64,000 nucleotides of DNA. Source: Escherichia phage vB_EcoM-UFV09. Below are positions 11,697 to 61,282 of the stretch, piece by piece. A program made the translations under genes and the position numbers. Within the stretch, counting starts at the first letter, position 1; every line of letters begins with the position of its first letter. The stretch is from sequence record MZ291552.2. One strand, 5' to 3'. The notes under the pieces were generated by a model, which made no database searches, was not told the DNA's origin, and saw nothing but the letters and a program-made list of their open reading frames with translations.

Positions 11697-12299
11697 TTAT
11701 AGATTAAATCCTTCAAAATCAAGAGTATAGATAGTGTATGTTGAATACTTTTTATACTCATATCTATCTGCAATTCTAAATACACTTCCAGCTGGTATCA
11801 TTACTTCTTGTTCATCTGAAACTAATTCCATATTACGATAACGATGGCTATCCGGAAACTTAAAGTTTGGATTGTATTCTTTACAGCGTAGAGCTTTTAT
11901 AGCATACTCCTGGAAATTGAATACCATAGGAGCTTTGAATTCAAAAATAACCTGTGTGTTATACTCTAAACCAGAAGCAAAATGTAGAGCTATATTTTTA
12001 TCATATGAAGCTGATACGACTTTATCAAATGTAATAATATCAATTCCTTGATTTAACACCTGCTTAGTCTCAGCTGGAACACCTCTCCAAAGAGGTTTAT
12101 CGTTTGGAACCAAACGAGATTTGATTATTTCATTTAACCAAGTATGGTCATCTGGTTTGTTGGTAATACAATGAATTAAAAGTTCAATTTCAGATAAATT
12201 AAACCCTTCAGAAAGTAATTCTTCACGAATAGAAGCACGCACCGATGCATCCATTGATTTTATTTTAAAATCTTTTAGTTGCATTACTGAGTATTTCAT
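11697..12299 (-). CDS. modA: ADP-ribosyltransferase ModA
   Basis: 200 aa; the adjacent 200-aa/207-aa pair matches T4 ModA/ModB sizes and order. Confidence 0.65.
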   Translation of the reverse strand: MKYSVMQLKDFKIKSMDASVRASIREELLSEGFNLSEIELLIHCITNKPDDHTWLNEIIKSRLVPNDKPLWRGVPAETKQVLNQGIDIITFDKVVSASYDKNIALHFASGLEYNTQVIFEFKAPMVFNFQEYAIKALRCKEYNPNFKFPDSHRYRNMELVSDEQEVMIPAGSVFRIADRYEYKKYSTYTIYTLDFEGFNL

Positions 12300-12919
12300 T
12301 CAACTACCTCAATATCATAAACTTTAAATGTTCCAAATGAATCGTGTAATTTTTCTTTTGAAATAGAAGTTATTCTATACTTTCCAATTGGAATCATCCA
12401 TTCTTGTTCACGCACAATCATCATTAAGTTATCAGTACGCTCTGAATCTAACCCATCAGTATCTTCATATGTATACTTAAACTCAGTATTAGGAGAAGAA
12501 AGTATAATATCGCTGATATGGTCAGAGTAATTAAAAGCTTTATCAGTTTTTAAGCGAAGTATTGTTTCAGTGAAATATTCAGCATAAGAAAAAGAACACG
12601 CTGTATGCAAACTAGTAGTAAATGAATCTACCCTGTTCGTTGAAAACACTTCTCCAACTTGTAAATCTTTAATGAGTTCTTTTGTCGATTTTGATATACC
12701 ACGATATAATTGATAAGGCGATTTAGTTAAATGCTTTTTAATGATTTTATTCAACTGTCTGTGAAGAGCTTCATTCTTTTTGGCTTCCATACATTGCCAA
12801 AGAATTGACTGTTCAAAGTCAGTAAATTTTTCACAGACCTTTTTATACATATCATATTGAAAATCAACGCTTTCGGCTTTTATAGATAACTGTTCAACAT
12901 CTGCAAGATTAATAATCAT
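12296..12919 (-). CDS. modB: ADP-ribosyltransferase ModB
   Basis: 207 aa; YRGI motif typical of the Arg-specific ADP-ribosyltransferase fold; adjacent to modA. Confidence 0.65.
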   Translation of the reverse strand: MIINLADVEQLSIKAESVDFQYDMYKKVCEKFTDFEQSILWQCMEAKKNEALHRQLNKIIKKHLTKSPYQLYRGISKSTKELIKDLQVGEVFSTNRVDSFTTSLHTACSFSYAEYFTETILRLKTDKAFNYSDHISDIILSSPNTEFKYTYEDTDGLDSERTDNLMMIVREQEWMIPIGKYRITSISKEKLHDSFGTFKVYDIEVVE

Positions 12920-17521: not shown

Positions 17522-17878
17522 TTAACCTCTATTCATAAAAGCATTAAAAATTTGGTCATCAATCGATGGAATAGCAACTTTTTCTGCATCATTTAGCAAA
17601 TCATTAATTTCATCAGATAGCATAACACATGTACCTTTATTTCCTGTAATTGTTACTGCACAATTACGAACGTTTTCTTTATTAAATTTTAGGTTAATAT
17701 TTTCGTAATGAAAATCCTTTAATGCTGAATATATTTTTAAAATAAAATTGTCTTTTACTACAATAAACCCAACCTCACTATTAAAACGTGGTTCATGGAA
17801 ACTGTAATAAACCTTTTCATCTATAAAATCGTATGAAATTTTTTCCATTTTTAAATATGAAAATTCAGAACTATACAT
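17522..17878 (-). CDS. hypothetical protein (61.1/61.2 region)
   Basis: 118 aa; C-terminal tail SIDDQIFNAFMNRG shared with the next ORF. Confidence 0.45.
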   Translation of the reverse strand: MYSSEFSYLKMEKISYDFIDEKVYYSFHEPRFNSEVGFIVVKDNFILKIYSALKDFHYENINLKFNKENVRNCAVTITGNKGTCVMLSDEINDLLNDAEKVAIPSIDDQIFNAFMNRG

Positions 17879-17879
17879 A

Positions 17880-18521
17880 TTAACCTTTATTCATAAAAGC
17901 ATTAAAAATTTGATCGTCAATAGAAACTTTTACTTTAGGATGTTCTTCAAACGGTAATTCATATCCACATATTACAATTTTGTGATCGATACCAAAATAC
18001 ACAGAAGCAATATGATTAATATTATTTTCAGTGAAATCTAAATCAACATCAATATCTTTTTGACTAACGCTCAAAGGATAATTAATACGAATAATTCGAT
18101 TATCTTTAACAAAGATTCCACCGACATACTCTGTGTTGCGTTTAAAGTTTACACGTTTCCTAAATGAAAAATATTCAGGTTCTTTATGAGCCCGACTCAT
18201 AGGACACAATGAGTAGCTAGAATAAGAGATGTCAAATCCTACACCTTCAATATGAGCCAACGTGTCATGATTAAACCAATTATAATCATACGCCAAATCC
18301 ATTATATTGTAATATGTGAAAGGCACCGGATTAACATCATATATTGTACCTTTAAAATCTGCCCAGGCAACGATTTCATTATCTTTAACAATTACAAAAA
18401 TTGTGCCAATAAGATATCCACGGTTATTTTCATCAGGCGTTATATTATAACATTGTGCATCAGGAAATTTACCGTATTTAAACGGTGGATTTTTGTGCAT
18501 ATAATAAATCATATTATTCAC
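17880..18521 (-). CDS. hypothetical protein (61.1/61.2 region)
   Basis: 213 aa; C-terminal tail SIDDQIFNAFMNKG shared with the previous ORF. Confidence 0.45.
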   Translation of the reverse strand: MNNMIYYMHKNPPFKYGKFPDAQCYNITPDENNRGYLIGTIFVIVKDNEIVAWADFKGTIYDVNPVPFTYYNIMDLAYDYNWFNHDTLAHIEGVGFDISYSSYSLCPMSRAHKEPEYFSFRKRVNFKRNTEYVGGIFVKDNRIIRINYPLSVSQKDIDVDLDFTENNINHIASVYFGIDHKIVICGYELPFEEHPKVKVSIDDQIFNAFMNKG

Positions 18522-57885: not shown

Positions 57886-57894
57886 ATCACCTTC

Positions 57895-58080
57895 TTAAAG
57901 CGTATTCACATAAGCTATTAATTCATTTTCTTTCTTATCAAACCGATCAGCAAATTCTTCCTGCTGCTCGGGAGATAGCGGGCCGTATTCATCATAAAAG
58001 GTGTTTGCTTCTATATGCTCATCTAGAAGTTCATGGATAAGCTCAAACAATTTATCTTTTTGTTCTTTGCTTAGACTCAT
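57895..58080 (-). CDS. small acidic hypothetical protein
   Basis: 61-aa ORF. Confidence 0.4.
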   Translation of the reverse strand: MSLSKEQKDKLFELIHELLDEHIEANTFYDEYGPLSPEQQEEFADRFDKKENELIAYVNTL

Positions 58081-58246
58081 ATATTAATTTCCAGGAGTTT
58101 TAAAATAATTCGCTTTTGCTTAAATATTTCCATAGTTAAATGACCAGTATCTTTTTGACCGATTCCAATGGCAAAACCTTTATTAACAGCGAGTTCAATT
58201 AAATTATCAAGCTCACGTAACACTTCGTATTGTAACTCAAAACTAT

Positions 58247-58474
58247 TCATTTTGGTTTACCTTCTTTAACGAAATCAGGATAAGGGTAAAATCCTGAATA
58301 AAATCCTTCACCTTTATGATTGATGCATCCTTTATTAGAACAATAGCACCAATAATCGAAATCACAAGCCATTTCATCGTTGCATAAAGCAAAAACAACC
58401 GGCCACTTACACTTTTCACAGTGGGCATTTTTAAGAATACTAGTTTGGCTCATAACCATGTAACCTTTAAGCAA
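58247..58474 (-). CDS. small Cys-rich hypothetical protein
   Basis: 75 aa with multiple Cys/His (CEKCKW...CDFDYWCYCSNKGCINH). Confidence 0.4.
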   Translation of the reverse strand: MLKGYMVMSQTSILKNAHCEKCKWPVVFALCNDEMACDFDYWCYCSNKGCINHKGEGFYSGFYPYPDFVKEGKPK

Positions 58475-58662
58475 TATTCTTCTACATGTTGTTTACGACC
58501 TTTCTTATCAATAAAGGTATATTCAACGAATGTTCCAATGTAGTCTTTATCTACATCATGTGGACTATTAATTGGACATTTAGTACGGCAAATGCGTTCC
58601 CATTGACGAATAATTTCCACTTTGTTTTTAGGATCAAACGGATGTGGGTAATGTACTTTCAT
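58450..58662 (-). CDS. small hypothetical protein
   Basis: 70-aa ORF. Confidence 0.4.
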   Translation of the reverse strand: MKVHYPHPFDPKNKVEIIRQWERICRTKCPINSPHDVDKDYIGTFVEYTFIDKKGRKQHVEEYCLKVTWL

Positions 58663-59113
58663 AATCCACCACTATTAAATCAATATCAGGAGTAAACATG
58701 TCGATTAATTTAGAAACCTTATCCCAATCGCCGCCAGCAATACCACAACCTATGCGTGGAATGTAAATTACTGGTTTAAACAAAAGGGTTTCTGCCTGTA
58801 GATTTAATTCTATCATGCAGTTTACTAAAGCACCATAATCAAGATTAGGACCTGGTTCGTATTGCGTATACAAGTTATAACATATGCCAAAACCATTAGG
58901 TTTATGTTTAAAAACAATAGACATATCGCCTAATTTATCACGAGAACCGTACTCGGTAGTGGTTTTATCTATTTCTAAAATTTTGGGATAGGCTCTTGCT
59001 AATTGACCAGCTACACCACTGCCCATTGTATGAAAACAATTGCACCCGTGCGCAATAATATTACCTTCAAGAAAGAGGGCGACAATATCGCCCTTGATAT
59101 ATTTTACAATCAT
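58634..59113 (-). CDS. macrodomain protein (putative ADP-ribose binding/hydrolase)
   Basis: 159 aa; macro-type glycine-rich motifs (…AHGCNCFHTMGSGVAGQLA… and …IGCGIAGGDW…). Confidence 0.55.
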   Translation of the reverse strand: MIVKYIKGDIVALFLEGNIIAHGCNCFHTMGSGVAGQLARAYPKILEIDKTTTEYGSRDKLGDMSIVFKHKPNGFGICYNLYTQYEPGPNLDYGALVNCMIELNLQAETLLFKPVIYIPRIGCGIAGGDWDKVSKLIDMFTPDIDLIVVDYESTLPTSV

Positions 59114-59457
59114 CTAGTACTCAATCCTCGATTATAAGAATCTACCAAACGGTCAACCATTGAATGACAAGCGGCTTTATCTTTCTCCTCCGCAACTGAA
59201 CATTCTAAGGTATTCCACTTTTTAGCATATCGTTTTAATAATGTATCGTTTTTGTATCTGCTTGATTTATCTCTTTCTCCGTCTTTATATGCATATATTA
59301 ATTTCTGCGCAAATTCAGCTTGGCATGCTTTATTTTTCCCACAATAATCTGCCGCAGTGCGGTTCACATACTCCCTAATTTCAGTATATGATGTATCTGC
59401 TGACGCATAAGCAGAAAATGAAATTAATCCTATACATAAAACCAAAATTTTAGTCAT
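59110..59457 (-). CDS. secreted protein (vs position)
   Basis: 115 aa with signal peptide; T4 vs size and position. Confidence 0.4.
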   Translation of the reverse strand: MTKILVLCIGLISFSAYASADTSYTEIREYVNRTAADYCGKNKACQAEFAQKLIYAYKDGERDKSSRYKNDTLLKRYAKKWNTLECSVAEEKDKAACHSMVDRLVDSYNRGLSTR

Positions 59458-60844: not shown

Positions 60845-61104
60845 ATACTGGCTTCTTTGAGTTTCGTTTTAGCAATAGTTAACTGATCGAGGCTTTCGGC
60901 GTAATTCTTCGCGAGTTCATCATCTTCACAGCTATCAAATGCTTCCCAAAATTCATCGTATAAAGCATCAAAGATAAGTCCTAAACGAACTTCAGCGTCT
61001 TTAATAGCATTTACTTTACCGATTTTTTCGTCGGTATGTGGCTTATAACCTTTAATATCTTCAATCATATTTGACTTCCTCACCAGTACATAAATCGTAT
61101 TCAA
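60802..61104 (-). CDS. small acidic protein at the vs.4 position (possible Acb2-like sponge, by synteny only)
   Basis: About 90-100 aa, two genes upstream of the GrcA-like gene; Acb2 assignment is positional and unverified. Confidence 0.3.
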
Positions 61105-61282
61105 CTAAACGAATAGGTTCATGAATGCCATATCCCTGAACAGAAATTTCTGTCGTAGGATAAATTCCATCAATATCACCCATATTCCAGGCTTCGTTAA
61201 ATTGCTGTTCGCCTGAATTACTAAACCACTCGGCGAAAGCATTTAGCACATCTTTAGAACCTTCAATAATTATCTTTGCCAT
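61061..61282 (-). CDS. small hypothetical protein
   Basis: 73-aa ORF. Confidence 0.4.
   Translation of the reverse strand: MAKIIIEGSKDVLNAFAEWFSNSGEQQFNEAWNMGDIDGIYPTTEISVQGYGIHEPIRLVEYDLCTGEEVKYD

Follow-up and report, generated by a model that had tools for sequence, protein, structure and literature searches.

The DNA analyzed here, a stretch of 64,000 nucleotides from Escherichia phage vB_EcoM-UFV09 (MZ291552.2; hereafter the window), is that of a Tequatrovirus (T4-like phage), and its minus-strand ORF at 58634-59113 raises the question of what such a phage does with a macrodomain. An earlier note on this DNA had read the 159-aa product as a macrodomain protein with glycine-rich motifs, had pointed to the ADP-ribosyltransferases ModA and ModB encoded in the same window, and had suggested that the protein could reverse or read ADP-ribosylation, either the phage's own or that imposed by host systems such as DarT-type toxins, or could break down signals derived from ADP-ribose, for example those of Thoeris. 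The ORF, which starts with ATG and encodes 159 aa, lies exactly at the coordinates given in the note, and the motifs were located as MGSGVAG (residues 30-36) and PRIGCGIAGGDW (residues 119-130, including IGCGIAGG at 121-128), these two being the most conserved parts of the family in a set of 64 homologs.

The macrodomain call was borne out by each of the approaches that we used. The Pfam Macro model (PF01661) matched the ORF at E=6.2e-8 over model positions 2-117 of 118, scoring 33.1 bits where the gathering threshold is 22, and PHROG 335 matched at E=1.6e-71. Sequence matches in the PDB were BT_1257 (2AFC/2FG1; E about 2e-10), Poa1p (6LFU), SCO6735 (5E3B), the DarG macrodomain of M. tuberculosis (5M3I; 1.4e-5) and TARG1 (about 0.009). 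The AlphaFold2 model, built from an alignment of 63 homologs from which T4 Tk.4 was left out, had a mean pLDDT of 93.6 and a pTM of 0.89 and displayed the three-layer alpha/beta/alpha fold of the macro type. When the model was compared with the PDB by Foldseek, every natural protein among the 50 best matches was a macrodomain (TM up to 0.82); the list also held a few designed serine hydrolases, which themselves match the macrodomain protein TTHA0132 by sequence. The leading matches were, in order, TARG1 (E=1.8e-9, TM 0.72/0.82), Poa1p (E=1e-8), BT_1257, T. aquaticus DarG, SCO6735 and M. tuberculosis DarG, with the MacroD-type and coronavirus Mac1 domains ranked below them. The 159-aa ORF is a genuine macrodomain protein, and the comparison with macro families by structure prediction that the note had proposed returned the macro fold. 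Taking the ORF itself, Pfam, PHROG, synteny with T4, the AlphaFold2 model and Foldseek together, we designate it a stand-alone macrodomain protein of the ALC1/TARG1-like class; its closest solved relatives belong to the ALC1-like class. As judged by the alignments and by their invariance in the 64 homologs, its two glycine-rich loops, one at codons N25-G36 (59006-59041, minus strand; phosphate-binding) and the other at codons P119-W130 (58724-58759, minus strand; substrate-binding), are predicted to hold the diphosphate and the distal ribose of ADP-ribose.

The gene occupies a well known position in the T4 genome. The gene order at the locus is the same as in T4 (rI.-1, rI, rI.1, tk, tk.3, the ORF, vs, vs.1, regB and vs.3), the neighbors are 93-100% identical to the T4 proteins (vs 99%, vs.1 100%, regB 99%, tk.3 93% and tk 99.5%), and the slot between vs and tk.3 is that of T4 tk.4 (NP_049723). 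The ORF protein and T4 Tk.4 align over their full length, with 58% identity across 155 aa (E=4e-70). Given the same slot, the nearly identical flanks and the full-length match, the ORF is assigned as the ortholog of T4 tk.4, also named adfM. Its DNA is 100% identical in Escherichia phage vB_EcoM-UFV05 and 99% identical in many other phages, and the tk.4-type gene is one that is already known, here as a divergent but common allele. The T4 reference record labels tk.4 as a "phosphatase; contains A1pp phosphatase motif", PHROG 335 carries the label "phosphatase", and the records of several close relatives already give either "macro domain protein" or "phosphatase" for this gene.

The stop codon of vs and the start of the ORF share an ATGA (59110-59113, minus strand), which may couple their translation within the co-directional block regB-vs.1-vs-tk.4-tk.3. 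At its other end the ORF overlaps the start of the tk.3 homolog (58450-58662) by 29 nt (58634-58662, minus strand), whereas in T4 the tk.4/tk.3 overlap is 4 nt, and the window allele carries a C-terminal extension of four residues relative to T4 Tk.4 (159 versus 155 aa). A promoter and terminator scan of 56-63 kb returned fewer promoter-like sites than in shuffled sequence and none that was specific to the tk.4-type gene. In the region 59060-59135 (minus strand), an 8-bp G+C-rich hairpin (59076-59094) was seen 20 nt into the coding region, inside the part of the gene that is conserved with T4, and in the predicted fold of that region the GAGGA Shine-Dalgarno was paired with downstream sequence. 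This hairpin, which falls within the first 40 coding nucleotides, folded only marginally better than shuffled sequence did (z=-1.9) and may be incidental.

The biological role of T4 tk.4 has been addressed genetically. When a T4 transposon library was screened on a host expressing DarTG2 (HIDEN-SEQ), tk.4 alone came out as significant. Deleting it cleanly made T4 sensitive to DarTG2, and the authors gave it the new name adfM, for anti-DarT factor macrodomain; they proposed that the protein takes ADP-ribose off DNA enzymatically (bioRxiv 10.1101/2025.11.20.689424). Previously, T2 and T4 that lacked adfN, and T4 that lacked both adfA and adfN, had been found to remain resistant to DarTG2 (PMC11825919), which predicts a further factor, and tk.4 fills this gap. 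Macrodomain-based protection against DarT2 is, moreover, an established phage strategy, since the Lys-type macrodomain gp104 of the chimallivirus PhiKZ was shown in vitro to remove DarT2-made thymidine-linked ADP-ribose (T-ADPr) and also confers protection from DarTG2 (PMC13309987). Reversal of T-ADPr has been described as a unifying activity of the ALC1-like class (PMC9411070). In PADLOC, the sole match of the window protein was DarG (E=4e-7, positions 3-144 of 329). Of the options raised in the note, the one involving DarT toxins is therefore supported by the published genetics of the T4 ortholog.

We consider it probable, at roughly seven chances in ten, that the window ORF is tk.4/adfM in a divergent allelic form and encodes an ALC1/TARG1-like enzyme that undoes DarT2-made T-ADPr on phage DNA. 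During infection, the host DarT2 would ADP-ribosylate thymidines in single-stranded phage DNA and so block replication; the phage macrodomain would bind the ADP-ribose moiety by its two glycine-rich loops and hydrolyze the N-glycosidic thymidine-ADP-ribose bond, by which the DNA would be restored and the DarTG2 defence neutralized. The ORF, its macro fold, family and synteny, the active-site residues and the mosaic divergence described below were computed here; the evidence for T4 tk.4 is genetic and comes from a preprint, and we infer from it that the 58%-identical window allele is equivalent, acting like T4 Tk.4 against DarTG2 by hydrolysis of T-ADPr. The equivalence is put no more strongly than this because of the 58% identity and of a difference in the substrate-binding loop, which reads GIAGGDW in the window allele and GIGKGNW in T4.

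In order to compare the active site with those of characterized macrodomains, the protein was aligned by MAFFT with DarG and TARG1 sequences and by HMM with TARG1 and BT_1257. The M. tuberculosis DarG sequence that was used was verified as a 100% match to 5M3I, and the T. aquaticus DarG sequence was taken from the same search output. Fourteen residues were invariant in all 64 family members, a set that includes distant metagenomic and bacterial homologs: H22, G23, N25, C26, G33, A35, D49, N80, Y82, Q84, P119, G122, G124 and W130. N25 aligned with N22 of DarG and is equivalent to N27 of SCO6735, and mutants of this Asn are less active in SCO6735 (N27S), in DarG and in the PhiKZ AdfM (N23A) (PMC9411070, PMC13309987). 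The catalytic loop NLYTQYEPGPNLDY comprises codons N80-Y93 (58835-58876, minus strand), and within it Q84 (58862-58864) aligned with the catalytic Lys of both DarG (K80) and TARG1 (K84). A126 aligned with D125 of TARG1, such that the TARG1 dyad K84/D125 is replaced by Q84/A126 in the window protein.

The absence of the Lys that is catalytic in DarG and TARG1 is, as judged from the alignments, a point that would speak against a T-ADPr hydrolase, and it has a precedent. SCO6735 has Gln85 in place of the Lys; its Q85A mutant is inactive and N27S nearly so, the wild-type enzyme frees DNA of ADP-ribose linked to thymidine more quickly than either DarG or TARG1 does, it protects E. coli against DarT, and a water- and backbone-mediated mechanism that is independent of Lys has been proposed for it (PMC9411070). 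The pair Q84/N25 appears to correspond to SCO6735 Q85/N27, judged by numbering, by motif and by the alignment of the BT_1257 motif NMIGQ with NLYTQ of the window protein. Members of the tk.4 family have a Gln-type active site, in which, as in SCO6735, Gln invariably stands where DarG and TARG1 have their Lys. N25 would position Q84, and with both the catalytic Lys and the catalytic Asp absent, the most likely chemistry is the Lys-independent one proposed for SCO6735 and not that of DarG and TARG1, which relies on Lys.

SCO6735 (Streptomyces coelicolor, 5E3B) and its close relative BT_1257 (Bacteroides thetaiotaomicron, 2FG1/2AFC), the latter being the best PDB match of the family profile at 72 bits, resemble the window protein in that they are single-domain, stand-alone and of the Gln type with the conserved Asn. 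They differ from it in sequence (about 25-27% identity), in being cellular proteins, with SCO6735 inducible by DNA damage, whereas the window gene lies in a phage early region, and in having a "mobile loop" that is five to six residues longer. The segment Q84-Y93 is 10 residues long in 46 of the 64 homologs, as it is in the window protein, and 13-14 residues long in the other 18; directly behind the catalytic loop, BT_1257 carries six residues more than the family profile. In addition, Ser32 of the window protein stands at a position that is Lys in DarG and BT_1257 and, going by the numbering, also in SCO6735 (K34). Full membership of the SCO6735/BT_1257 subclass was rejected on the absence of its defining long mobile loop. 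Since both the long basic mobile loop and the equivalent of the DNA-contacting SCO6735 Lys34 are absent, with S32 in place of the latter, efficient de-ADP-ribosylation of DNA by the window protein is not guaranteed. On the aligned residues, the protein is best read as a putative thymidine-ADP-ribose DNA glycohydrolase whose active site is of the SCO6735 type and whose scaffold has the length seen in DarG and TARG1.

The DarG macrodomain (T. aquaticus 5M31/5M3E; M. tuberculosis 5M3I) shares with the window protein its fold class (TM about 0.72-0.76), the conserved Asn and, by analogy, probably the target pathway, DarT2 thymidine ADP-ribosylation, but it is only about 20-23% identical and has K80 where the window protein has Q84. 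Neither a C-terminal DarT-binding domain nor an adjacent darT was found, the product being a 159-aa single domain and its neighbors vs and tk.3. The NCBIfam DarG model (NF048014), which has a cut-off of 250 bits, gave a score of 27.8, and only the N-terminal macro region of its 338 positions was matched. As such, membership of the DarG family was ruled out by the lack of the catalytic Lys, of the C-terminal domain and of a neighboring darT and by a score far below the cut-off; the tk.4 family, which invariably has Gln in place of that Lys, would not be a captured DarG. The chimallivirus AdfM (PhiKZ gp104) is likewise a phage-encoded orphan macrodomain that acts against DarTG2 and was given the same name independently; it differs in being DarG-like with a Lys (N23/K78) and in being imported into the phage nucleus (PMC13309987). 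The name AdfM consequently now stands for two unrelated phage proteins, that of the T4 Tk.4 type (Gln) and that of the PhiKZ gp104 type (DarG-like, Lys).

The top structural matches, human TARG1/OARD1 (4J5S) and yeast Poa1p (6LFR), bring in functions of two kinds. TARG1 also reverses DarT-made T-ADPr (PMC9411070, PMC12879935). Poa1p is described as an Appr1p phosphatase, and the window protein keeps its H-x-C-N-C motif, H22-G-C-N-C26 with the invariant H22 being aligned with Poa1p H23-S-C-N-C27, the H23 of which is a mutagenesis target in Poa1p structures (6lfs). The protein might, then, be a metabolic ADP-ribose-1''-phosphate phosphatase or O-acetyl-ADP-ribose deacetylase (Poa1p-/YmdB-like) that clears small ADP-ribose derivatives and has no role in defence, as the "phosphatase; A1pp motif" and "phosphatase" labels of T4 and PHROG 335 would have it and as the place of Poa1p among the best sequence and fold matches would allow. 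Those labels are, however, homology transfers, the sole phenotype reported for T4 tk.4 is the loss of DarTG2 resistance, and a housekeeping role leaves it unexplained why the gene should be hypervariable within sharp limits while the backbone around it is conserved. Hydrolysis of Appr1p in vitro is, besides, a side activity of many macrodomains, which counts against a metabolic function, and we regard such a function as quite improbable.

The presence of ModA and ModB in the window, which the note had also reported, was confirmed. The modA ORF is at 11697-12299 and the modB ORF at 12296-12919 (both minus strand), and their products are 99.0% and 97.6% identical to those of T4. Since a writer and an eraser in one genome follow a common logic, the macrodomain could be thought to erase or read the ADP-ribosylation of host proteins by the phage's own Alt, ModA and ModB, or RNAylation by ModB. 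Alt, ModA and ModB are, however, R-S-E ADP-ribosyltransferases that modify arginine (R265 of RNAP alpha), and Arg-linked ADP-ribose is removed by hydrolases of the DraG/ARH type, while macrodomains of the TARG1/MacroD type act on ester-linked substrates (PMC8120803). The substrates of TARG1/MacroD-type macrodomains are ester-linked or OAADPr, with thymidine-ADPr for the ALC1-like class (PMC8120803, PMC9411070), and cleavage of Arg-linked ADP-ribose is not known for the TARG1 class. In addition, modA and modB are 46 kb from the tk.4-type ORF and share no organization with it, in HIDEN-SEQ it was with the DarTG2 host alone that tk.4 stood out, and the gene could be knocked out cleanly. The co-occurrence of ModA/ModB with the macrodomain is a constant feature of T4-like genomes, and the link that the note drew between them is not supported, given the arginine linkage chemistry and the 46-kb distance. 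A role on the phage's own modifications is accordingly very improbable, and functional coupling to ModA/ModB was rejected on the linkage chemistry and the genome organization.

Sequence comparison shows the tk.4 gene of the window to be a mosaic with respect to T4; the breakpoint, presumably one of recombination, falls within the gene, around codon 40-50. By sliding window, nucleotide identity to T4 was 83-100% in the first ~110 nt of the gene and in the flanking genes (93-99% in tk.3) and fell to 45-65% in a segment that corresponds roughly to codons 39-159 (about 58625/58634 to 59000, minus strand). At the protein level, identity to T4 Tk.4 was 86% for residues 1-50, 48% for residues 51-100 and 42% for residues 101-155. 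The two proteins are thus alike in locus (vs-tk.4-tk.3), length class and PHROG 335 membership, are the same over the N-terminal ~47 residues but for a few substitutions and have H22, N25, Q84, G122, G124 and W130 in common, yet are only 58% identical overall and 42-48% identical over residues 51-155. In phage records with at least 80% query coverage, 321 carried the window type and 377 the T4 type, and the two allele classes are therefore about equally frequent among sequenced phages (~1:1 in Tequatrovirus). The window allele is 78% identical to the family consensus and the T4 allele 63%, and the substrate-binding loop GIAGGDW of the window allele is also that of the consensus. T4 Tk.4 is an outlier in this loop, with G126 and K127 where 58-60 of the 64 members have A and G and with N129 where 53 have D. 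On these comparisons, the T4 Tk.4 that has been studied experimentally appears to be the less typical form of its family.

The divergence is sharply bounded and lies outside the invariant ligand-binding residues, as would be expected of a surface in an arms race, and this bears on a counter-defence that is non-catalytic or targeted otherwise: stoichiometric binding of DarT2, or action on other nucleic-acid ADP-ribosylation (RNA, other bases) or on ADP-ribose-based immune signals, with alleles tuned to different toxins. Supporting this alternative, SCO6735 Q85A, though catalytically dead, can inhibit DarT through an interaction with it (PMC9411070), and the adfA homolog of the window, which is also a divergent island, belongs with AdfA, described as a direct inhibitor of DarT (PMC13309987). 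By analogy with SCO6735 Q85A, binding and inhibition of DarT2 could contribute to the protection or account for it. On the other hand, the Asn and the Gln are strictly invariant in 64 diverse homologs, including a free-standing bacterial one, which points to conserved enzymatic chemistry. As for broader targets, CmdTAC, which ADP-ribosylates mRNA, is described as defending robustly against T-even phages (PMC11618068); since nearly all of these carry the tk.4-type gene, the gene evidently does not counter CmdTAC. Taken together, we consider an alternative of this kind unlikely, and removal of T-ADPr by the macrodomain remains the preferred reading.

Homologs of the Tk.4 type were found in 2773 phage records of many genera and macrodomains of the DarG type, with Lys, in 291, jumbo phages dominating among the matches listed for the latter. 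These two distributions suggest that phages may have recruited macrodomains against DarT2 on two separate occasions. A homolog from Pelagimonas (40% identity), the one bacterial case inspected, stands alone among unrelated genes, and no gene for a toxin lies close to it. On this single and hence weak piece of evidence, an origin by capture from a DarTG operon of bacteria was rejected. We also entertain, as a rather doubtful proposition, that the T-even AdfM family was recruited independently from stand-alone Gln-type macrodomains and combines, as a hybrid, an SCO6735-like active site with a loop of DarG/TARG1 length, its two alleles possibly being specificity variants, each matched to other ADP-ribosylating toxins of the host (separate clades of DarT2, for instance, or further ADP-ribosyltransferases that act on nucleic acids), perhaps with direct toxin binding besides hydrolysis.

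Other loci in the window also vary relative to T4. The homolog of gp61.2 (AdfA, another anti-DarT factor; 17880-18521, minus strand) is only 73% identical to its T4 counterpart, whereas its neighbors 61, 61.1 and dmd show 96-98% identity. With the gp61.2 homolog and tk.4 both diverged, both of the anti-DarT loci in the window are divergent islands. Directly downstream of the gp61.2 homolog is an extra ORF of 118 aa (17522-17878, minus strand) that is missing from the T4 annotation and is a short paralog of the C-terminal half of the gp61.2 homolog, with 34% identity and the same SIDDQIFNAFMN[KR]G tail. A second variable block (57890-58450, minus strand) lies between tk and tk.3, where T4 tk.1 and tk.2 are replaced by a 61-aa tk.2-like ORF (54% identity), a 57-aa ORF (58077-58250) and a Cys-rich 75-aa ORF (58247-58474) that is overlapped by a 61-aa ORF in another frame; no match to tk.1 was found in this block. 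The vs.5 homolog (61061-61282, minus strand) is an intact acidic ORF of 73 aa. The first 17 residues of the 58-aa T4 reference Vs.5 match this homolog and are followed by a tail in another frame that looks to be of low complexity, which suggests that the reference vs.5 is frameshifted relative to the window phage.

The gene and the anti-DarTG2 role of its T4 form have already been published. A Gln-type active site and so deep a split into two alleles are not described in the AdfM literature consulted, and the basic picture is changed by neither. The practical value lies in correct annotation, as hundreds of T4-like genomes give "hypothetical protein" or "phosphatase" for an ortholog of an anti-DarTG2 gene, and the anti-defence allele content of a Tequatrovirus matters for phage therapy and for host-range prediction. 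With Gln rather than Lys in the active site, mutagenesis and mechanistic models of AdfM would be better guided by SCO6735 (Q85/N27) than by K80 of DarG. Finally, two very different natural alleles in a nearly identical backbone provide a ready-made test of the toxin specificity of anti-DarT proteins.
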